From: Candidatus Woesebacteria bacterium GW2011_GWB1_39_10
GTDB lineage: Bacteria; Patescibacteriota; Microgenomatia; UBA8517
Assembly: GCA_000993205.1 (NCBI GenBank)
Contig: LBVU01000003.1
Coordinates: forward strand, 85,820 to 149,819
Direction: 5' to 3'
Length of the DNA stretch: 64,000 bases
A program made the position numbers and the translations under genes. The notes beneath the pieces are model-generated. The model was not told the origin of the DNA. It saw only the letters and a list, made by a program, of their open reading frames with translations, and did not search any database. Positions 6,174-52,402 of the stretch are shown piece after piece; the first letter of the stretch is position 1; each line of letters opens with the position of its first letter.

Positions 6174-6262
6174 CTGTAAATTATACCAAACTTGTGTTTT
6201 TGTGTCCTATAGGTTAGAATCCTCCATATAAATAGGCTACAAATCCCAGAAAGGAGTTAGTT

Positions 6263-6708: not shown

Positions 6709-7023
6709 ATGCAACACTTAGTTAAATTTTTTATGCCTGAGGCCATTGCCAAAGCTATCAATGCTCATTCTGAGCTTGTAACCTCGACTTTCGCCAGAAA
6801 GTTAAAAGTCCCAGAGAGCAGTGTAACCTGCATCGCCATGGCCATACCTGGAGGCAATCAGCGTATCATCGAGATCGCATTCCCCGTTATTCATACCACC
6901 GAAATGGAACGTGCGGCCCAGGATGCCTGGATCAACGCCGCCAGTATAATCACCGGCGATGTTGCAGAGCTTGTGTTCGACCGCGAATCGGATATCTGGT
7001 TTACTATTGGCTCTAAGGCTTGA
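6709..7023 (+). CDS. Hypothetical protein (GC-rich, likely horizontally acquired)
   Basis: 104 aa ORF with RBS 'AAAGGAGTTCCA-ATG', followed by an intrinsic terminator. No recognisable domain. Confidence 0.55.
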   Translation: MQHLVKFFMPEAIAKAINAHSELVTSTFARKLKVPESSVTCIAMAIPGGNQRIIEIAFPVIHTTEMERAAQDAWINAASIITGDVAELVFDRESDIWFTIGSKA

Positions 7024-7034
7024 TCGTTCGCAAG

Positions 7035-7076
7035 AAGGCGCTTTTCTTTTCAAAAAAGACTAGCGCCTTTTCTTTT
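7035..7076 (+). terminator. Rho-independent terminator after the GC-rich ORF pair
   Basis: Stem AAGGCGCT(7035-7042)/AGCGCCTT(7062-7069) followed by TTTCTTTTG. Confidence 0.7.
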
Positions 7077-7080
7077 GCAG

Positions 7081-7409
7081 TCATCCTGAATTCATTTCAG
7101 GATCTTCCTTGTCCTGAACTTGTTTCAGGATCTGCGTGAACAAATCCTTGAACTCCGGATTTTTTGTTTTAATCAAATCAATCTTCCATTCTCTATGCAA
7201 TTCTTGAGTTGTTTTTCTCTTTTGATCGCTTCCAATATTTCTTCAAAAACCTCGTAATAAAGAAGTTTGTAAGTCTTATATTTAGAGCTAAACATACTAC
7301 CAAACCCACTTCTATGCCGCGCAATTCTATTAATTAAATTAGAAGTCACCCCAATATACAAAACCGGTTTTTGATTTCCCAAAATGTAAACGAATCCTTG
7401 TTTAGACAT
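7081..7409 (-). pseudogene. GIY-YIG nuclease family protein, frameshifted near 7197
   Basis: 'FVYILGNQKPVLYIGVTSNLINRIARH' GIY-YIG motif. Frame 0 stops at 7173 ('...REKQLKNCIENGRLI*'). The +2 frame continues as the family-typical 'HREWKIDLIKTKNPEFKDL...' to 7081. A single missing G (TGG to TG) would restore '...QLKNWHREWKIDLI...'. Confidence 0.7.
7083..7131. repeat. Two tandem hairpins with YCCTGAA-N5-TTCAGGR stems
   Basis: ATCCTGAA-ttcat-TTCAGGAT (7083-7103) and TCCTGAA-cttgt-TTCAGGA (7112-7130). Related to the hairpins at 7420-7472 and to the infB/dnaK leader elements. Confidence 0.6.
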
Positions 7410-7419
7410 AATGACAAAG

Positions 7420-7472
7420 ATACTGAAACGAGTTCAGTATGACACACGCAGAAGCTGAACTGAATTCAGCTT
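7420..7472. repeat. Two hairpins, ATACTGAA-N5-TTCAGTAT and AAGCTGAA-N5-TTCAGCTT, between the Lon-like and GIY-YIG genes
   Basis: Perfect 8-bp stems at 7420-7440 and 7452-7472. Same CTGAA/TTCAG core as 7083-7131. Confidence 0.6.
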
Positions 7473-7486
7473 GACTCGGTGACTCA

Positions 7487-8533
7487 TCACTGTGGTATAA
7501 ATGTCTTTACGTTTTCGGAAGTTACCCGAACTTCTTTAGCTTTTCCTTCAACAATCATCCTGGCCACCTTACGCACAACTCCGTCGATATTCCGCTCAAG
7601 TGTACGGATTCCGGCGTCATAGCCCAAGGGTCTAACAATATTAGGCCAAACTTCGTCGGAAATAACAAGTGAGCCTTCAGGCAGCCCCGATGCTTTCATT
7701 GCGGCCGGCAAAATATATCTTTGAGCGATAACAGTCTTTTCCTGGTCGGAATAACTGGGCATGCTAATGGGCTCAAGCCTATCCATAACGGCAGTTGCGA
7801 TGCTTGTGGTGTTATTGGCTGTTGCAATAAACAGAGTCTCGGAAAGGTCGAAGGGGAAGTCGATATAATGGTCCACATAGGCATAATTCTGTTTGGGGTC
7901 CAAAAGCTCGACCAAAACTCCCATTATGCTGCTTCTGCCCTGTTCTGTAACCCTGTCGATTTCGTCCAAAAGTATAACCGGATTTCTGCACTGGGTATCC
8001 CTCAAGGCCTTAATAACTTTCCCAGGTTCTGCCTCAGGGTGCATTCGCGATTGACCGCGAAGGTCTAAAGGGTCTCCCATACCTCCAAAGGGAATACGGG
8101 CAATAGGCCTGCCCAGCGCTTCTGCAATCGAATAAGCAATCGTTGTTTTACCGGTACCAACAAGCCCCACAAAACATAGAATCGGGGCACGATACAAATC
8201 TTTCATTTCCCCTTTTTCGGTTTTTAGTTTCATAACACTCATGTACTCCAAAACACGGGTTTTAATATCATCAAGGCCATAGTGGTGAGCTTCAAGAATT
8301 TTCTTAGCATTTTCCAGGTCCAGAGTATCCTGGATTCTTTTGTTCCAGGGAAGGATTGTTATCCAATCAATATATTTTTCCATGCTGTCAAACTCGGGTA
8401 AAAATGAGGGGGAATTAGTAAGCTTGGCCAGTTGATTAAGACGAACCAGAACCATCTCGCGGAGTTTATCCGGTAAGCTGGCATTTTTAATTCTTTCTAT
8501 TAAAACAGTAATTTCCTGGGCAGCAGGTTCCAT
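7487..8533 (-). CDS. Lon-like AAA+ ATPase module, with no Lon N-domain and no S16 protease domain
   Basis: 348 aa. 'YIDWITILPWNKR...HYGLDDIKTRVLEYMSV...ILCFVGLVGTGKTT...VILLDEIDR...LLDPKQNYAYVDHY' aligns to the Lon ATPase core and alpha-helical subdomain. The ORF ends before any Ser-Lys protease domain. No SD upstream. Confidence 0.75.
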   Translation of the reverse strand: MEPAAQEITVLIERIKNASLPDKLREMVLVRLNQLAKLTNSPSFLPEFDSMEKYIDWITILPWNKRIQDTLDLENAKKILEAHHYGLDDIKTRVLEYMSVMKLKTEKGEMKDLYRAPILCFVGLVGTGKTTIAYSIAEALGRPIARIPFGGMGDPLDLRGQSRMHPEAEPGKVIKALRDTQCRNPVILLDEIDRVTEQGRSSIMGVLVELLDPKQNYAYVDHYIDFPFDLSETLFIATANNTTSIATAVMDRLEPISMPSYSDQEKTVIAQRYILPAAMKASGLPEGSLVISDEVWPNIVRPLGYDAGIRTLERNIDGVVRKVARMIVEGKAKEVRVTSENVKTFIPQ

Positions 8534-8559: not shown

Positions 8560-9429
8560 TTAAATCCCAATTTTCCAAACACCATTCTCCCTAAATGCAG
8601 GTATTGCCTGTCTTTTAGCGGAGTTGAAAACCCCGGACCCTTCTAATCTATTTATTTTTACATATTCAGTCAGTGTTATTATTTTCAGACCTTTCAGATA
8701 GGTTATTCTTTTATTTAAAGACTCTATCAGGGCTTTGCTGATTATTTTAGTCATTAACTTTATGCTTTTGGTATCGTTAAACTCGTTAAAGGCTAAATAA
8801 TACTCAAGCTTTTCTTTATTTTTAACAATGATGTTTGGAAAACCAAGACTTAATAGTTGGAAGTTCAGTAAAACTCGACCGATTCTTCCGTTTCCGTCAT
8901 TAAAAGGGTGGATTGATTCAAACCCGAGGTGAAAACCAGAAATCTTATCCAAAAAATATTTTGTATTGTCGCTTGAATAACTTAACAACAAATCAGAAAT
9001 TAAACCTTCAATTTTTTCTGGTGGAGCGCCAATATGCGTCCCTACGCGAACATTTTCCGTCCCATTCCTAAATCTTCCCGAAATTTTGTCATTAATATTA
9101 TCTAAGAGCATTTTATGGAGAAACAAAATTACATGAATATCTAAATCAGTTCTTTCTTTATTTCTCAAATATTCAAAAATCCGGGCCAAATTTTTAGCCT
9201 CAAAAACCTCCCTTAAACTAACATCACGGGGAACCTCCATTTCCATGAGGATTTTTTCTGTCTCTTTCAAGGTAAGAGTCGAGTTTTCAATAGCATTGCT
9301 GTTATAGACACTCTCGGCGATTTCAGCCTCGTCTATTAAATTAAGCAAAGAGGATTTTCCTACCCTTCGTTGATCAAATTCCTTTTTGAGCTCATCGATT
9401 TTGGCTTTTGTAGAAGTTCCAACTGTCAT
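8560..9429 (-). CDS. Fic/Doc family protein (Fido AMP-transferase) with an N-terminal inhibitory motif
   Basis: Canonical Fic motif 'HPFNDGNGRIGR'. N-terminal 'SNAIEN' matches the (S/T)xxxE(G/N) auto-inhibitory helix motif (class II arrangement). Confidence 0.85.
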   Translation of the reverse strand: MTVGTSTKAKIDELKKEFDQRRVGKSSLLNLIDEAEIAESVYNSNAIENSTLTLKETEKILMEMEVPRDVSLREVFEAKNLARIFEYLRNKERTDLDIHVILFLHKMLLDNINDKISGRFRNGTENVRVGTHIGAPPEKIEGLISDLLLSYSSDNTKYFLDKISGFHLGFESIHPFNDGNGRIGRVLLNFQLLSLGFPNIIVKNKEKLEYYLAFNEFNDTKSIKLMTKIISKALIESLNKRITYLKGLKIITLTEYVKINRLEGSGVFNSAKRQAIPAFRENGVWKIGI

Positions 9430-9695: not shown

Positions 9696-10523
9696 ATGGC
9701 CAAAACTTCTAAGATTGCATTATTTGAGGGGAATAAAATACGCAGGCATTGGGATAACAATAAAGAATTGTGGTATTTTTCTGTTGTCGACGTTGTCCAA
9801 ACACTAACAGATCAACCAGATTTTACCAGGGCCCGTAAATATTGGAATAAATTAGCAGAAAGACTTCGAAAAGAAGGAAGCGAGTCGGTGACAAAATGTC
9901 ACCAACTGAAAATGAAATCCTCTGATGGCAAATACTATCTTACTGATGTGGCGGACACTGAAACAATGTTACGTTTAATTCAGTCAATCCCCTCCCCAAA
10001 AGCCGAGCCTTTCAAATTATGGCTGGCCAGCGTAGGTTATGAACGATTGGAAGAAACTGCCGATCCGGAATTGGCTATTAATCGCGCTTTAAAAACATAT
10101 TTACAAAAAGGCTACAGCAGAGAATGGATCAACCAGCGTTTAAAAAGTATTGAAATTCGAAAAGAATTAACTGATGAATGGGAAAGCCGTGGGGTAAAAG
10201 AAGGGTTGGAATTTGCAATTTTAACCAATGAAATTACTGAAGCCTGGGCCGGGTTAACTACTAAACAATACAAAAATCTCAAAGGATTAAAGAAAGAGAA
10301 CTTAAGAGACAATATGACTAACTTGGAATTAGTTTTAAACATGTTGGCAGAAACAGCCACAACTGAAATTTCTCAAAAAAGAAAACCCAAAAACTTTCCT
10401 GAAAACAAAAAGGTTGCCAAAGAAGGAGGAACTGTGGCGGGGAACGCAAGACGCGAAATAGAATCAAAAACAGGTAAAAAAGTGATTACCGGAAAGAATG
10501 CTAAGAAATTGAAACTTATATGA
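9696..10523 (+). CDS. DNA-damage-inducible protein D (DinD)-like / Bro-N domain protein
   Basis: 'IALFEGNKIRRHWDNNKELWYFSVVDVVQTLTD...IQSIPSPKAEPFKLWLASVGYERLEE' matches the DinD/Bro-N antirepressor-type family from memory. Confidence 0.75.
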   Translation: MAKTSKIALFEGNKIRRHWDNNKELWYFSVVDVVQTLTDQPDFTRARKYWNKLAERLRKEGSESVTKCHQLKMKSSDGKYYLTDVADTETMLRLIQSIPSPKAEPFKLWLASVGYERLEETADPELAINRALKTYLQKGYSREWINQRLKSIEIRKELTDEWESRGVKEGLEFAILTNEITEAWAGLTTKQYKNLKGLKKENLRDNMTNLELVLNMLAETATTEISQKRKPKNFPENKKVAKEGGTVAGNARREIESKTGKKVITGKNAKKLKLI

Positions 10524-17197: not shown

Positions 17198-17245
17198 AAT
17201 GTCATCCTGGAGTCCCGCACTGCGGGACGATAGGATCTTATTCAG
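17198..17245 (-). promoter_or_regulatory. infB 5'-leader element, AATAAGATCCTATCG-[hairpin]-CTCCAGGATGACA, with the SD inside the outer stem
   Basis: On the mRNA strand: CTGAATAAGATCCTATC-GTCCCGCAGTGCGGGAC-TCCAGGATGACATT-ATG. The inner perfect hairpin is 17212-17228. ATCCT/AGGAT pairing would occlude the AGGA SD. Near-identical architecture upstream of dnaK. Confidence 0.6.
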
Positions 17246-24794: not shown

Positions 24795-24822
24795 CACTTC
24801 ATTACTATATAGTAATGAAGTG
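24795..24822. promoter_or_regulatory. 28-bp perfect palindrome CACTTCATTACTAT|ATAGTAATGAAGTG in a divergent promoter region
   Basis: Core TTACTATATAGTAA is shared with the palindromes at 25273-25306 and 48103-48130. Sits 2 nt upstream of the TrpR-like start. Confidence 0.7.
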
Positions 24823-24824
24823 AT

Positions 24825-25274
24825 ATGACAAAAGTTTCAGGACTTCCACTTAGGCCAGATGTTTGGAATAGAGTATTGGAACTATTTGTTTCTACACTTG
24901 CCAACCAAACGAATAATAAAAAATTGTCGGAGTTTTTCGATGACTTTTTCTCCCCAACAGAAAAAATAATGTTTGCCAAACGGCTTGCGGCGGCAGTTTT
25001 ACTGGCCAAAAACCATGATTACCAAAGCATCCATGAAATTCTCAGAATCAGTCCTCCCACAATAGCAAAATTGAGTTTGAAAATTAAATACGGGGGAGAA
25101 GGACTAAAACCCGTGATAGAAGATATTTTTAAAAAGGAAGCAAATCAAATAGTTTGGAAGGAAATCGAGAGTCTGTTTGATCTGCCAACTAAAGGAAATA
25201 TAAAATCTCCTGAAAGATTTAAAAGAAACCTCAAACGCGAGCAAAAAATTCGAGAAATAAAATCCGAATTTTAA
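24825..25274 (+). CDS. TrpR/YerC-YecD-like DNA-binding protein
   Basis: 'LSEFFDDFFSPTEKIMFAKRLAAAVLLAKNHDYQSIHEILRISPPTIAKLS' matches the Trp-repressor-like YerC/YecD pattern. Confidence 0.65.
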   Translation: MTKVSGLPLRPDVWNRVLELFVSTLANQTNNKKLSEFFDDFFSPTEKIMFAKRLAAAVLLAKNHDYQSIHEILRISPPTIAKLSLKIKYGGEGLKPVIEDIFKKEANQIVWKEIESLFDLPTKGNIKSPERFKRNLKREQKIREIKSEF

Positions 25275-25306
25275 ATACTTAATTACTATATAGTAATTAA
25301 GTATTT
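25273..25306. repeat. 34-bp perfect palindrome AAATACTTAATTACTAT|ATAGTAATTAAGTATTT
   Basis: Located between the convergent TrpR-like and dnaJ genes. Second copy of the TTAATTACTATATAGTAATTAA core. Confidence 0.7.
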
Positions 25307-28094: not shown

Positions 28095-28147
28095 ATTTCA
28101 TATTGTCATCCTGGAGCGAAGTATCTACTTCGCGATAGGATCTTATT
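28095..28147 (-). promoter_or_regulatory. dnaK 5'-leader element with the same architecture as the infB leader
   Basis: mRNA strand: GTTAATAAGATCCTATC-GCGAAGTAGATACTTCGC-TCCAGGATGACAATATGAAAT-ATG. Inner hairpin at 28116-28133. A further ATCCT...AGGAT element lies at 28161-28182. Confidence 0.6.
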
Positions 28148-28175
28148 AACTTTTGATATGATCCTTCAACTTCGT

Positions 28176-28655
28176 TCAGGATAATTGTTTGCTAACAATC
28201 ACCTTCGCATGTCTTACTACATTACCATCTTTAAACTTCCAACCCGTAACAAGAACCTCTGAGATCATATTATCCATCTTTCCGTCAATTACTTCAATAA
28301 CTTCTTGACTGTTTTCGTCAAATTCACTTCCAATTTTAGGATTTATTTCTTCCAAACCTTCTTCAATAAAAACTTTTTTAAATTCCAAAATCGATATCGC
28401 AAGTCCGGAATCTTTTAGATGCTCCTGAGCTTTTTCTAACATGTCCATTATTGGCAGCAGTCTTGAGATTATGCTTAAAGACGAAAATTTTGTCCAAGAA
28501 ATTTTCTCTTCCTCAGTCCTTCGCTTTAAATTATCATAATCCGCCAAAGTTCTTGCCAGTTGGCTTTTCAGCTGTTCCATCTCCAAACTATTCGCTACCA
28601 GGGCTTTGACTGGCCAAGCTTTGCTTATTCGCTTTTCGCTTTTCGCTTTTTTCAT
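28176..28655 (-). CDS. grpE: Nucleotide exchange factor GrpE
   Basis: 159 aa, positioned between hrcA and dnaK, with a GrpE C-terminal pattern. Confidence 0.85.
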   Translation of the reverse strand: MKKAKSEKRISKAWPVKALVANSLEMEQLKSQLARTLADYDNLKRRTEEEKISWTKFSSLSIISRLLPIMDMLEKAQEHLKDSGLAISILEFKKVFIEEGLEEINPKIGSEFDENSQEVIEVIDGKMDNMISEVLVTGWKFKDGNVVRHAKVIVSKQLS

Positions 28656-32285: not shown

Positions 32286-32819
32286 ATGCCCAAAAATAAA
32301 TCAATCAATTTATTGCCTCAAGAAGAATTTGAAGCCTCTACTATCGGTCGTGTGTTAAAGTGGGCCACTGGAACTTTTAGAATTATTGTCATAATAACAG
32401 AGATGGTGGTTATGGCCGCATTTCTTTCGCGCTTTTGGCTGGATGCGCAAAATTCAGATTTGACCGATTCTATTAAGATTAGAAGCGCTCAAATATCCGC
32501 TCAGGGAGACTTGGAAAAACGCTTCAGGGAAATTCAAACCAAACTGGACATTTTCAAAGCCCTCGCCTTAATACCCAAGCCCGGTGACAGGGTGGAAAAT
32601 GTCACATCAAAAACCCCAACCGACGTTATTCTCTCCTCAATGGCGGTCCAGGAAAATTCCATGTCCATAAAAGGAACCGCTTCTAATGAACTGGCAATTG
32701 CGCAGTTTGCAAGCAATCTTAAAAATGAACCTTCTTTTAAAAAGGTCGAACTTAATTCAATTAACTCGTCTGAAGACAATTCAGGATCAACAATTTTTAT
32801 GATTAAAGTTTCGTACTAA
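32286..32819 (+). CDS. pilN: Type IV pilus assembly protein PilN-like
   Basis: 'INLLPQEEF' start, single TM, coiled region. 177 aa. Confidence 0.65.
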   Translation: MPKNKSINLLPQEEFEASTIGRVLKWATGTFRIIVIITEMVVMAAFLSRFWLDAQNSDLTDSIKIRSAQISAQGDLEKRFREIQTKLDIFKALALIPKPGDRVENVTSKTPTDVILSSMAVQENSMSIKGTASNELAIAQFASNLKNEPSFKKVELNSINSSEDNSGSTIFMIKVSY

Positions 32820-46756: not shown

Positions 46757-46784
46757 CACTACCATAATTCGAATTATGGTAGTG
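46757..46784. promoter_or_regulatory. 28-bp perfect palindrome CACTACCATAATTC|GAATTATGGTAGTG between the femAB paralogs
   Basis: 14-bp arms with no U-tract. Ends 8 nt before the next start codon. Confidence 0.6.
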
Positions 46785-48102: not shown

Positions 48103-48130
48103 AACTTAATTACTATATAGTAATTAAGTT
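48103..48130 (+). terminator. Third copy of the AT-rich palindrome (AACTTAATTACTAT|ATAGTAATTAAGTT) followed by TTTTTAG
   Basis: Lies in the convergent intergenic region. A hairpin plus T-run on the + strand fits a terminator. The shared core with 24795 and 25273 suggests it is also a regulator site. Confidence 0.55.
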
Positions 48131-48131
48131 T

Positions 48132-51092
48132 TTAGCTTCTGGATTTGCAAAACATTGAGAACTCACATTTTCCCTGACAAAAAAAGTTGTTGTTGCATTT
48201 GAAATCCGAATTTTCGATTTCGTCACGGATCTTTAAAATTTCTTCTTTTACTTTTTCCAGATCTTTCTCTGTCCTGGTTGTAGAAATTTTTTCCTGAGTA
48301 TCCAAATAATAAAGTGAAAGTTTTATATCTTCCGGTTTTATCTTTCTTATATTGCTCATCGCTAATGCATAAAAAGATAATTGAAGATCTTTATTAACTT
48401 CTTTTTGAGTAGGAATCGTTGCCCCGGTCTTATAGTCAATAATTTCTATTCTGCTTCCACCCAAATCATCAACCCTGTCGATTGTGCCGCCGATCCGCAA
48501 GGATCGTCCTGAACTCGTTTCAGGACCTAACGGTAGAACAAATTTTCCCTCAAGCAAAATAGTTCTTATCTTTGGATCATACCCATTCTTTATAAATCCC
48601 TGAAGATAAAGCTCGCCTTTCTTGTAGAATTCCTGTTTATGTTTTTTGTTTAAATATCCATCTTCGAGGAAAGATTCTTTATATATTTCAATCAATCTTT
48701 CCGAAAAACCCCGTAAAGCCGCAGGCGTTGTGGGGTTCAATGAAATTTCTTGATAGAATTTTTTAAGCGTCTCATGAATCGAAATTCCGAAACTACTCGA
48801 TGCAAAAGCTTTTGTCGGAAGTTTGTAAACATATTTAAGTTTGTAATGTAGCGGACATGTTTGGAATGTTTCGATTTGACTCACCGAAAGGTATTCTACC
48901 TTTCGTGGCTCTATGCTATATGGTTTATGCTTTATGGGTTCGCTACCATATTGCTTATGGCTTAAAGCATATGGCTTTTCATTGGCATAAGGCATACGGC
49001 TTGTGGCATCTTCCCCAAGCGTTTCATACACGAACGGGCTAATTTTCTTCTTTCTCTTTGCCTCACCATAGAAATCCGCCGCGCTAAAGTACAATTTTTC
49101 CTTTGCTCTGGTCATTCCAACATAAAAAAGCCTTCGCTCTTCCTGCAAATGAAAATCCCCTTCCGGTAAAACTTCTTTTATTAATTCTTGTGGAATTGGA
49201 ATTTGTTCATGACGTTCGCGTCCAGGAAATCTCTCCCCCACCAGGTTAACCAAAAACACGATCGGAAATTCAAGGCCTTTCGAAGAATGAACTGTCAAAA
49301 TATTTACGGCGTTATTTTCCTGCCAGTCGCCATCTGTAACATTGGGGCTCTCCCCCACCTCAAGCAAAAGATCTATATAGTCCACAACCTCAGCAACCCA
49401 ATTTTTGCTTGCCCCGCGAAGCCTTGGCGAAGTGGGGTCGTCTTCATAGGATTTAATCTTTTCAAAAAACTTGGCAATGTTTTTGGCTTTGGTGTCCTCC
49501 GAATTTTCTATCAACTTTTGCAACAACCCAATCTCCCGAATACAATCGTATAAAATTTCCCCGGCTGTCTGAGACTTAATTACTTTTAAATGCTTATCGA
49601 TAATCAACAAAAGTTTTTTGATTTGTTCATTTCCTGATTCTGCCGCGATTTCAAAAACCGACAAGCTTCTCTTTTTTGCTGCAGATGAAATTTTAATAAG
49701 CTCCAATGGAGATATATCAAAAATGTCAGATGATAATAGTCTGTAAAAAGATTCTGAATCTTCCGGGTTATATAAAATTTTGAGATATGAAATCAAATCA
49801 ACAATTTCCTCTTTTTCAAATAAATTACTTGGTCCCAAAAATTGATTTGGTATCCCCCGTCTTTCTAGTTCTCTTACAAATGGATCTGCATGGTTGTTCG
49901 CACGTATTAAAATAGCCATGTCTTTAAAATCATATCGTGCGAACCTTCCCGAAGCCTTGTGCGAAGGAGGGTTGGTTGTCAATTTGAGGATCTCCTTCAC
50001 AACAGAGTGCGCCTCATCCCCAACATTGGCGGCATGAACAAATTTTATTTCCGACTTCCCGCCCCTAACTTCCGACTTCAATCGCTTGTCTATCCCCTCC
50101 ACAACTTCCAACCTGTCCGGGTTGTTGTGTTGAATTAAATCATATGCCCTATCCAGAATTTCTTGAATAGAACGGTAGTTTTTTGTAAGAACTATTATTT
50201 TTGTTTTTGGAAACGTTTTTCTAAATTGAATAATGTTAGAAACCGCCGCTCCGCGGAAACGGTAAATTGATTGATCATCGTCCCCCACCACTGTAATATT
50301 TTGAGATTTGCCAGCCAAAAGAATGGCGAGTTGATTTTGCGCAAAATTTGTATCCTGAAACTCATCTATTAAAATATATTTAAATTTCTCTTGATAAATT
50401 TTAAGAATATTAGGACGTTCTTTGAAAAGTTTTATCGTATTTGTGATGAGGTCACCGAAATCCATTACGTTTTCTTTTATTTTTAGATCACTATATTTTT
50501 TATAAGCATTGGCCAACTCCACATTTTTCTTGGCTTCTAGTTTTTCCTCATCACTCAATTTTAAATTTTTAATTTTAAATTTTAAATTCACCCATGCGAC
50601 ATAGTCGCTGGGTGCTACGCATTCATCCTGCAGTCTATTAAAGTGTTGCAAAAGTCCATCAATAAACTTATTCGGGTTCCCCAAGGGTCTAAAATAATCT
50701 AGATCGAGGTCAAATAGGTTTTTTCTGACTAGATCAATTGCTTGCGCTTCTGTCATTAATTTATAACTCGGAGATAGACCAATGTGTATCGCATTATCCC
50801 GGAGAATTTGATCGCAAAAAGAATGAAATGTCATAACCCACATTTGTGTATAACCATATGGGAGTGCCACATCAATTCTTTCTTCCATTTCCTTTGCCCC
50901 TTTTTCTGTAAAAGTCAGCGCCAATATCTCTTCGGGTTTGGCCAGTCCACTCATTATTAAGTGTTTAACCCGCTCGGAAATTACTGTGGTTTTGCCAGTC
51001 CCCGCGCCGGCGATAATGAGAAGCGGTCCATCGCCAAACTTGACGGCTGCGATTTGCTCTTTGTTGAGTTTTAAATTTGAAGTTTCTATCAT
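48132..51092 (-). CDS. UvrD-family helicase fused to a C-terminal Cas4/AddB-type PD-(D/E)xK nuclease with Cys cluster
   Basis: N-terminus 'LIIAGAGTGKTTV', 'ILIDEFQDTN'. C-terminus 'TCPLHYKLKY...RIEIIDYKTG...CNNNFFCQGKCEFSMFC'. Contains a KPY-type low-complexity linker and two in-frame GC-rich repeat copies. Confidence 0.8.
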   Translation of the reverse strand: MIETSNLKLNKEQIAAVKFGDGPLLIIAGAGTGKTTVISERVKHLIMSGLAKPEEILALTFTEKGAKEMEERIDVALPYGYTQMWVMTFHSFCDQILRDNAIHIGLSPSYKLMTEAQAIDLVRKNLFDLDLDYFRPLGNPNKFIDGLLQHFNRLQDECVAPSDYVAWVNLKFKIKNLKLSDEEKLEAKKNVELANAYKKYSDLKIKENVMDFGDLITNTIKLFKERPNILKIYQEKFKYILIDEFQDTNFAQNQLAILLAGKSQNITVVGDDDQSIYRFRGAAVSNIIQFRKTFPKTKIIVLTKNYRSIQEILDRAYDLIQHNNPDRLEVVEGIDKRLKSEVRGGKSEIKFVHAANVGDEAHSVVKEILKLTTNPPSHKASGRFARYDFKDMAILIRANNHADPFVRELERRGIPNQFLGPSNLFEKEEIVDLISYLKILYNPEDSESFYRLLSSDIFDISPLELIKISSAAKKRSLSVFEIAAESGNEQIKKLLLIIDKHLKVIKSQTAGEILYDCIREIGLLQKLIENSEDTKAKNIAKFFEKIKSYEDDPTSPRLRGASKNWVAEVVDYIDLLLEVGESPNVTDGDWQENNAVNILTVHSSKGLEFPIVFLVNLVGERFPGRERHEQIPIPQELIKEVLPEGDFHLQEERRLFYVGMTRAKEKLYFSAADFYGEAKRKKKISPFVYETLGEDATSRMPYANEKPYALSHKQYGSEPIKHKPYSIEPRKVEYLSVSQIETFQTCPLHYKLKYVYKLPTKAFASSSFGISIHETLKKFYQEISLNPTTPAALRGFSERLIEIYKESFLEDGYLNKKHKQEFYKKGELYLQGFIKNGYDPKIRTILLEGKFVLPLGPETSSGRSLRIGGTIDRVDDLGGSRIEIIDYKTGATIPTQKEVNKDLQLSFYALAMSNIRKIKPEDIKLSLYYLDTQEKISTTRTEKDLEKVKEEILKIRDEIENSDFKCNNNFFCQGKCEFSMFCKSRS
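49411..49439 (+). repeat. GC-rich repeat family, copy D (in-frame in helicase-nuclease; encodes DDPTSPRLRGA)
   Basis: 'GCCCCGCGAAGCCTTGGCGAAGTGGGGTC'. Confidence 0.7.
49945..49973 (+). repeat. GC-rich repeat family, copy E (in-frame in helicase-nuclease; encodes NPPSHKASGR)
   Basis: 'CTTCCCGAAGCCTTGTGCGAAGGAGGGTT'. One extra base relative to copy D, so it is translated partly in a different frame. Confidence 0.7.
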
Positions 51093-52372: not shown

Positions 52373-52402
52373 CCACTTAAATACTGTACAGTATTTAAGT
52401 GG
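52373..52402. promoter_or_regulatory. 30-bp perfect palindrome CCACTTAAATACTGT|ACAGTATTTAAGTGG
   Basis: Overlaps the 3' end of the MBL gene, upstream of the repeat-protein gene. No U-tract in the transcribed direction. Confidence 0.55.

Follow-up and report, generated by a model that had tools for sequence, protein, structure and literature searches.

Chenal et al. (Nat Commun 2025; PMC11893778) described small single-domain GIY-YIG proteins (CDD cd10448, GIY-YIG_unchar_3), named Ssn, as site-specific nucleases that act on single-stranded DNA (ssDNA) only. The founding member, SsnA of Neisseria, binds one strand only of the NTS hairpin CGTCATTCCCGCGMAVGCGGGAATCYRG and cuts a few nucleotides (nt) upstream of it. 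SsnA depends critically on the three bases that precede the palindrome and on the C right after it, and the enzyme does not bind RNA. The N. meningitidis protein contains the tyrosines Y6 and Y17 and the metal-binding glutamate E64. The ssn genes of many phyla are bracketed by oriented hairpin repeats, the SRMs, and homology to the family was defined by a tblastn E value of <1e-10 to SsnA. The locus treated here lies in a 64-kb stretch of contig LBVU01000003.1 of Candidatus Woesebacteria bacterium GW2011_GWB1_39_10 (the whole stretch is referred to below as the window) and consists of four hairpins, H1 to H4, around a frameshifted GIY-YIG gene. It is very probably an SRM-ssn-SRM module, that is, an Ssn-family gene bracketed by its cognate oriented hairpin repeats.

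A second group of relevance is the CGTC-tagged REPs, catalogued by Di Nocera, De Gregorio, and Rocco (BMC Genomics 2013; PMC3733652). These repeats show an unpaired CGTC or TGTC tag, an 8- to 9-bp stem opening with A-T, a loop of 4 to 5 nt, and a short tail beginning with C. Their hosts are found among the Proteobacteria, Bacteroidetes, Chlorobi, Spirochaetes, and Thermotogae, and the group includes the dRS3 repeats of Neisseria and some of the RPEs of Rickettsia (RPE-4 and RPE-6). Copies are located inside DNA repair genes, UvrD-type helicases among them, and the repeats were reported without a dedicated transposase.

The GIY-YIG gene and its relationship to SsnA

The GIY-YIG domain is the sole Pfam domain above the cutoff in the window protein, matched at 1.6e-14. 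With the N. gonorrhoeae SsnA orthologue, the protein in its repaired form (see below) shares 44% identity over the whole length (BLASTP E value of 5e-26). The reference used for this comparison is a 94-amino-acid open reading frame (ORF) in mislabelled N. gonorrhoeae chromosomes within a plasmid collection, a locus found by tblastn with the window protein at an E value of 2e-13. This ORF contains Y6, Y17, and E64, and 9 exact copies of the NTS lie around it within 900 bp. Residues Y8, Y18, and E65 of the window protein align with the catalytic residues of SsnA and are invariant in an alignment of 23 sequences (A1). By this sequence comparison, SsnA of Neisseria and the window GIY-YIG protein are homologous. 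A search of NCBIfam with the window protein matched no family. In a sequence-profile search of the PDB, the nearest entries are the UPF0213 proteins 1zg2 (E value of 2.6e-8) and 1ywl (E value of 1.6e-7), both distant, and no SsnA structure is among the matches.

The original prediction described the GIY-YIG gene as decayed, and this is borne out. The ORF as written encodes 78 amino acids (7409..7173), and a 1-bp deletion, the missing G of the TGG codon of W71, lies between 7198 and 7197. Over positions 7020 to 7500, frameshift included, no difference is found among six independent assemblies that come from different samples, and a sister lineage with ∼91% DNA identity (L089) carries an intact syntenic ssn gene in which the G is present; the frameshift is therefore no assembly error, and the window copy is a pseudogene with a genuine 1-bp deletion. 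The 78-amino-acid product is predicted to be inactive because it has lost residues that are invariant in A1, namely, W71, W75, K76, L79, N84, P85, D89, and L90. With the G restored, the reading frame extends to 109 amino acids, running through H2 and H1 (...ILKQVQDKEDPEMNSG) to a TGA stop codon at 7083-7081 within the GGATGAC flank of H1, so that a 95-residue core is followed by a 14-residue tail encoded by the hairpins. Two hairpins had been placed in the out-of-frame C-terminal coding part of the gene, and these are H2 and H1. Close homologues of the window protein have 94 to 108 amino acids, and the odd termini of many of them are likewise hairpins read in different frames, with the C termini DPETSSG, DPEINSG, and ILKQVQDD and the N terminus MLNLFQHL. 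Programmed frameshifting was considered for the window gene and ruled out, as there is no slippery motif at AAG-AAT-TG|C-ATA and the sister simply has an extra G.

The hairpins of the window locus

All four near-perfect hairpins with 7- to 8-bp stems and 5-nt loops that had been reported around the pseudogene are found at positions 7080 to 7475, with the CTGAA/TTCAG core throughout (Table 1). In H1, H3, and H4, an 8-bp stem that starts with an A-T pair is combined with a 5-nt loop and the tail CT, and H2 is limited to a 7-bp stem without the outer A-T pair. The tag GTC is present on all canonical copies in the window; the base before it is T in H3 and in the two bipartite copies described below and A in H1 and H4. 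The gene is flanked on both sides, by H4 and H3 upstream and by H2 and H1 downstream. H4 lies 11 nt past the stop codon of the upstream AAA/Lon-lid gene. The conserved outer ends of the module are H4 on the left and H1 on the right. Folded as ssDNA, the hairpins reach -5.0 to -6.8 kcal/mol (z of -3.0 to -3.8), and hairpin pairs folded as RNA reach -22 to -25.7 kcal/mol.

These hairpins are far more frequent than expected by chance. Against 100 dinucleotide-preserving shuffles of the 64-kb window, YCCTGAA-N5-TTCAGGR occurs 3 times with 0.02 expected, a count that none of the shuffles reaches, and the shorter CTGAA-N5-TTCAG occurs 6 times with 0.07 expected. The generic class GTC-X5...revcomp(X5)-C shows no enrichment (15 observed, 12 expected); among such generic GTC-tagged inverted repeats in the window, only the GTCA[TA] copies are genuine. 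Searches of Rfam gave no matches for the whole window at gathering thresholds and no match on the hairpins for positions 6900 to 7600 at an E-value threshold.

Association of hairpins and gene in homologous loci

The association was followed in 80 loci of ∼3.3 kb each that encode relatives of the window protein, taken from a scan of one genome per species. The loci span Bacteroidota, Patescibacteria, Alpha- and Gammaproteobacteria, Campylobacterota, Melainabacteria, Elusimicrobiota, WOR-3, and others. In total, they contain 212 matches to GTC-N3-CTGAA-N5-TTCAG-N3-C, of which 195 are fully complementary at the three free stem positions. A hairpin is found no more than 200 bp from the gene in 66 of the 80 loci and on both sides in 38. 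Up to 100 bp from the gene, there are 6.4 hairpins per kb, ∼70-fold more than the 0.09 per kb found at distances above 700 bp. The commonest arrangement of the nearest copies, sense upstream and antisense downstream (24 loci), is that of the window.

The stems vary in a manner that keeps them paired. Stem positions 2 and 3 covary (TA/CG/AT and GC/CG/TA) with a score of 0.268, compared to 0.064 in shuffles; none of 500 shuffles reaches this score, and a shift of the partner by one column abolishes the signal. Positions that the search pattern does not force are conserved as well. In 210 instances, the base before GTC is C in 53% and T in 33% (86% together), the first stem base is A in 97% and its partner T in 99%, T follows the closing C in 88%, and the loop has the polar consensus YTYRT. 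These unforced conserved positions reproduce the frame of the NTS, CGTCAT...ATCY. The hairpins are the cognate repeats of the Ssn gene family that they flank and form one system with the small GIY-YIG gene. The proposed clustering around the GIY-YIG gene is accordingly non-random, but a description as merely clustered misses this relationship.

As a separate observation, the hairpin at the H3 position in one related lineage (L007, ∼660-690) reads GTCATCCCGAA-cctgt-TTCGGGATC. The change from T-A to C-G is compensatory and lies within the otherwise invariant CTGAA/TTCAG core.

By analogy with SsnA and three tested homologues, the enzyme would bind the repeat as ssDNA only. The strand bound would be (C/T)GTC-stem-loop-stem-C, folded as a hairpin, with a cut a few nucleotides 5' of the tag. 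Specificity and orientation of the repeat would come from the stem, the GTC tag, and the C after the stem. The Ssn subfamily to which the window protein belongs would, on this analogy, be expected to cleave ssDNA at CTGAA-core hairpins.

Table 1. Repeat copies and ssn gene in the window
Feature	Position	Strand	Sequence	Context
H1	7080-7104	+	GTC-ATCCTGAA-ttcat-TTCAGGAT-C	Canonical CTGAA-core repeat, antisense to ssn, at the 3' end of ssn
ssn pseudogene	7081..7409	-		Predicted single-domain GIY-YIG nuclease of the Ssn family (Pfam, BLASTP, comparison with the sister copy)
H2	7111-7132	+	GTCCTGAA-cttgt-TTCAGGATC	Short degenerate form, orientation as H1, inside the repaired ssn frame
H3	7419-7443	-	GTC-ATACTGAA-ctcgt-TTCAGTAT-C	Canonical repeat, sense, 10 nt upstream of the ssn start codon
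H4	7451-7475	-	GTC-AAGCTGAA-ttcag-TTCAGCTT-C	Canonical repeat, sense orientation
Bipartite repeat, infB leader	17201-17237	+	GTCATCCTGGAG-TCCCGCactGCGGGAC-GATAGGATC	Spacer upstream of infB (start 17197, -)
Bipartite repeat, dnaK leader	28105-28142	+	Inner hairpin GCGAAGT-atct-ACTTCGC	Spacer between an upstream 159-amino-acid ORF and dnaK (start 28094, -)
Probable decayed copy	28160-28182	+	GATCCTTCAActtcgTTCAGGAT	Adjoins the dnaK-leader bipartite element; found by reading the sequence
Probable decayed copy	32768-32788	+	GTCTGAAgacaaTTCAGGATC	At the 3' end of a + strand ORF
Short-form copy	48506-48526	+	GTCCTGAA-ctcgt-TTCAGGAC	In frame in a helicase gene (48132..51092, -)

Comparison with described repeat systems

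The window locus resembles the Ssn/SRM system of Neisseria in a single-domain GIY-YIG protein of ∼95 amino acids with the catalytic Tyr, Tyr, and Glu in place, in a gene bracketed by repeats, and in extra repeat copies dispersed in the genome. The repeat frame is shared too, with a YGTC tag, a stem opening with A-T, and a C after the stem followed by Y. Differences concern the stem core, which is the AT-rich CTGAA/TTCAG in the window in contrast to TCCCGCG/CGCGGGA in the Neisseria NTS, the host, a bacterium of the Microgenomates group within the candidate phyla radiation (CPR) with a small genome and few copies, and the frameshift of the window gene.

H1, H3, and H4 also share the geometry of the CGTC-2 REPs, consisting of the CGTC/TGTC tag, eight stem base pairs of which the first is A-T, five loop nucleotides, and a C at the head of the tail. 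The two groups further have in common that head-to-head pairs are frequent and that copies are located inside UvrD-type helicases. A Sulfurovum CGTC-2 insert peptide, RHSELVSGS, fits a CTGAA-core hairpin in one frame; this back-translation was made here and is absent from PMC3733652. In contrast, no enzyme was found for the CGTC REPs in PMC3733652, whereas ssn is the partner here and in PMC11893778. H1 and H4 have A, not C or T, before GTC, and the 2013 survey did not include CPR genomes.

The REP/BIME-RAYT and IS200/IS605 systems are similar in that an ssDNA hairpin is read by a small nuclease and a single-copy gene is flanked by the repeat. Repeat clusters of alternating orientation and a probable domestication of the system are additional points in common. 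REP/RAYT differs by a GTAG tag and a Y1 HUH tyrosine transposase, compared to the GTC/CGTC tag and GIY-YIG nuclease here. The window locus falls outside REP/RAYT, having the tag GTC, a GIY-YIG gene adjacent to the repeats, and no HUH gene. The in-frame copy at 48506-48526 recalls the Rickettsia RPEs, in that it lengthens a variable loop of an essential-type enzyme by a few residues (GPETSSGR); RPEs measure ∼100 to 150 bp, in contrast to the ∼21 to 24 bp of the window insert.

Dispersed copies and bipartite elements

In total, the window contains three canonical, two short-form, two bipartite, and two probable decayed copies. The short-form copy at 48506-48526 is hosted by a 986-amino-acid UvrD-type helicase/PD-(D/E)XK nuclease, where ...GPETSSGR... 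is added at a variable loop of the PD-(D/E)XK domain, and most orthologues are 5 to 8 residues shorter at this site (alignment A4). The probable decayed copy at 32768-32788 combines an intact 3' half with a degenerate 5' arm; with a stem of only 5 bp, it may be due to chance. The dispersed copies represent the repeats of this superfamily across the genome at large and correspond to the CGTC-tagged REPs.

The bipartite elements before infB and dnaK consist of GTCATCCTGGAG, an inner hairpin, and GATAGGATC. Their frames are identical and their inner stems differ, with both stems fully paired. Folded as DNA, they reach -10.7 and -9.4 kcal/mol. Both are located in intra-operon spacers, in antisense orientation. 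On the mRNA strand of infB, AGGAUGAC provides AGGA 7 nt before the AUG, and the outer stem pairs this AGGA. The flanks that the hairpins were said to share with the infB and dnaK leaders are indeed common to them: GTCATCCT-N(10-40)-AGGATC has 3 matches in the window, at 7080, 17201, and 28105, compared to 0.01 expected. The bipartite frame occurs in at least 119 metagenome stretches. In 89 metagenome instances, the inner hairpins are highly variable and the tail is commonly CCA. Copies just upstream of gene starts number 12 of these 89, no more than in a crude random control, and no dnaK or infB start lies beside any of the 89. In 5 of 80 loci (L097-L176), a bipartite element abuts an Ssn-like gene, either antisense at its 3' end or on both sides; the proteins encoded share 45 to 49% identity with the window protein or with Neisseria SsnA. 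The bipartite elements of the two leaders therefore belong to the repeat superfamily of the CTGAA hairpins, as its second class. The proposal that the hairpins were seeded from the leaders, or the reverse, gives way to that of two classes of one superfamily, CTGAA hairpins and bipartite elements, present in many phyla.

The exact H1-type hairpin GTCATCCTGAA-N5-TTCAGGATC is also present in 53 stretches of IMG/VR viral contigs (L219-L271). Some of these contigs contain 5 to 7 copies, all on the same strand, and one viral contig only encodes an ssn homologue. The GTC strand of the viral CTGAA copies coincides with the C-rich strand in 56 of 75 cases, with 19 on the other strand (p of 2e-5). The bipartite copies show no such GC-skew bias (28 versus 32). 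The orientation of the viral copies relative to ORFs, judged with a crude ORF caller, is uninformative.

The helicase gene 48132..51092 encodes three further repeat-like peptides, PPSHKASGRFA, TSPRLRGAS, and TTPAALRGFS, the last of which is replaced by PSHKASARLS in a close homologue. The DNA at ∼48707-48733, CCCCGTAAAGCCGCAGGCGTTGTGGGG, is an imperfect hairpin. These peptides may represent a second kind of in-frame hairpin insertion. Separate from the GTC-tagged hairpins are long perfect palindromes with 11- to 15-bp arms, for example, ACTTAATTACT-atat-AGTAATTAAGT, at 24795-24822, 25273-25306, and 48103-48130, with variants at 52373-52402 and 46757-46784. Two of them bracket a 149-amino-acid ORF (24825-25274) near a dnaJ-like gene and dnaK, and one lies directly past the stop codon of the helicase gene. 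In appearance, the long palindromes resemble operator sites or bidirectional terminators, and they have no relationship to the GTC-tagged hairpins.

History of the locus

At the junction of the AAA gene and a metallophosphoesterase gene, six related lineages have the module, as a discrete unit, and four lack it. The four empty junctions (L093-L096) belong to lineages in which the AAA protein is 84 to 89% identical. Here, the next gene, the metallophosphoesterase gene in three lineages and a 184-amino-acid ORF in L096, follows after 13 to 30 bp, and neither ssn nor a hairpin is present at the junction. The junction is filled by the module alone in L216, L217, L007, and L008. The order at filled junctions is the TGA stop codon of the AAA gene, 11 nt, an H4-type hairpin, ssn, the terminal hairpin GATCCTGAAnnnnnTTCAGGATGAC, AT, and the ATG of the metallophosphoesterase gene; the terminal hairpin with the directly following AT-ATG is observed in L216, L217, and L007. 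Filled junctions thus run from stop codon through module to next start, which identifies the outer hairpins as the module boundaries. An AAG-type H4 hairpin with the same 11-nt junction is found in L089, L216, L217, and L007, and none of the filled lineages departs from this left junction, even where the AAA protein is only 71% identical. In L216, L217, and L007, the AGGATGAC flank places AGGA 6 to 7 nt ahead of the downstream metallophosphoesterase start.

Lineages with a filled junction are interleaved with those having an empty one in a neighbor-joining tree of the AAA protein. The ssn module is read as an old resident with several clean losses, and repeated site-specific gain is a possible alternative history. 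In the window and its sister, two or three small reverse-strand genes with their own terminator were inserted later, at the outer edge of H1 right after GGATGAC; the far end of this extra insertion, near the metallophosphoesterase start, shows no hairpin remnant. Between window and sister, the loops of H1, H3, and H4 differ by transitions only, at loop positions 1, 3, and 4.

Further details of the sister locus (L089, 2860-3380, aligned with window positions 7020 to 7500) are a swap of the H1 and H2 loop variants (ACAAG and ATGAA) and a 23-nt nested hairpin, TCCTGAC-ctgtc-GTCAGGA, held in the H4 loop. Ahead of the metallophosphoesterase gene, an extended -10-like motif, TGGTATAAT, is seen at 6174-6262 (-); the gene probably has its own promoter in this lineage, the operon being split by the extra reverse-strand genes. 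On the other side of the AAA/Lon-lid gene, a Fic gene (8560-9429) and a Bro-N gene (9696-10523) lie between it and the PNPase gene in the window. The same gap is empty in L093, L095, and L096 and contains a different 280-amino-acid ORF in L094. The stretch from the PNPase gene through the AAA gene to the metallophosphoesterase gene is a hot spot of accessory insertion.

Alternative explanations

Several findings weigh against the assignment of the locus to the Ssn/SRM system. The published degenerate SRM expression, HGTCWYN(0-2)YYVSBRHN(0-5)WNVSBRGN(0-2)RNCYNB, recovers all 9 NTS repeats of the Neisseria locus and has no match in the window or in the 80 homologous loci. It misses the window hairpins because the AT-rich stem fails its S and V positions; the tag and the tail fit. 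Going by this comparison of motifs, the window hairpins are an AT-rich stem class of the SRM architecture that the published search expression does not capture. A sizeable minority of the 80 loci have hairpins in both orientations on both sides of the gene, and ∼9 copies in 64 kb are far below the number in Neisseria. The activity at CTGAA-core hairpins is extrapolated from proteins of ∼44% identity and is to be taken with corresponding caution. The broken window gene cannot act now; with the local ssn dead, the hairpins would be relics of recent origin, unless an ssn copy elsewhere in the genome serves them. Window and sister agree at 48 of 48 stem positions in H1, H3, and H4, compared to 91% identity for the region overall, and these stems may be under some constraint despite the dead gene.

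A different explanation takes the module for a current or recent insertion sequence (IS)-like element, with H4 and H1 as terminal inverted repeats and the GIY-YIG protein as transposase. The dispersed hairpins would then be nonautonomous derivatives, as in REPIN/RAYT or IS200/IS605. This is compatible with the Ssn/SRM assignment and, as a description of the present locus, unlikely. The authors of PMC11893778 voiced the same idea. The outer hairpins are inverted, with GTC facing outward at both ends, and inverted flanking is the commonest arrangement in the 80 loci. The unit of ∼370 to 400 bp is discrete, ends in hairpins, and sits between a stop codon and the next start (L216, L217, and L007). 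The interleaving of filled and empty sites on the AAA-protein tree, the copy in frame in the helicase gene, and the exact H1-type hairpin in the 53 viral contig stretches point in the same direction. Yet the same junction, including the 11 nt on its left, recurs across lineages whose AAA proteins are 71 to 97% identical, and a position so constant over deep divergence argues against recent transposition and fits old vertical residence with losses better. No target site duplication can be defined, the spacer not being conserved among the empty-site relatives, and the window holds a single ssn locus. To our knowledge, no strand-transfer chemistry is known for this GIY-YIG family, whose characterized activity is cleavage only.

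That the hairpins act as RNA, as intrinsic terminators, mRNA stabilizers, or processing sites for the surrounding convergent genes, and that their nearness to the GIY-YIG gene is incidental is very unlikely. The hairpins fold well as RNA, H1 alone gives a marginal match in a scan for the terminator consensus, and the outer stem of the bipartite copies at infB and dnaK takes in the AGGA of the likely Shine-Dalgarno sequence. E. coli REP elements have documented effects in 3' untranslated regions. Many REPs have moreover been argued to be transcribed (PMC3733652). The hairpins are not followed by a T/U tract, however: beyond the single conserved T, T amounts to ∼40% in the 210 instances, and a separate GC-rich terminator with a T-run, at 7029-7076, already stands behind the + strand gene. 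Tag and loop polarity are kept, and yet the flanking copies take both orientations relative to the gene (73 versus 75). Mismatches in the stems show no excess of G-U (3 of 16), SsnA does not bind RNA (PMC11893778), and relatives with an empty junction lack any hairpin there. The terminator or processing-site family offered as one option in the original prediction is not supported, in view of the missing U-tract, the two orientations, and the separate terminator. Hardly credible at all are palindromic double-stranded operators of a dimeric regulator, or chance inverted repeats in an AT-rich genome. This reading has on its side that the palindromes of the stems are perfect and that two copies lie just upstream of the ssn start. 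Chance is excluded by the shuffle counts; the conserved nonpalindromic GTC tag, the closing C-T, and the polar loop YTYRT are unexpected for a symmetric operator, and copies are found inside ORFs and at 3' ends.

Implications

The system itself was published in 2025 and the repeats were catalogued in 2013, and the window case is a member of that system. New here are the CPR (Microgenomates-group) host, an AT-rich stem class missed by the published expression, and a pseudogenized nuclease. A further scenario, quite improbable as it stands, is that the CTGAA-core and bipartite GTCAT...ATC hairpins spread by ssn-dependent ssDNA mobility and were then repeatedly exapted as expression signals in compact genomes. 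If this were true, the AGGATGAC flank would serve as the Shine-Dalgarno sequence for infB and, in L216, L217, and L007, for the metallophosphoesterase gene, and the outer stem would occlude AGGA so that the dnaK copy would act as a heat-labile translational gate. The strand bias in viruses would reflect replication- or transcription-coupled insertion or else selection against self-cleavage. The likely use of the AGGATGAC repeat flank as a ribosome-binding site is of some further interest.

For the family as a whole, the CTGAA-core class is widespread across phyla, and counts based on the published SRM expression may understate the association of gene and repeat because the expression misses this class. 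The CGTC REPs of 2013, reported without a dedicated enzyme, are tied to the Ssn system. New pairs of Ssn protein and hairpin would have practical value as site-specific ssDNA cutters. Intact and frameshifted ssn genes at the same site provide a natural experiment on what becomes of the repeats after loss of the nuclease.

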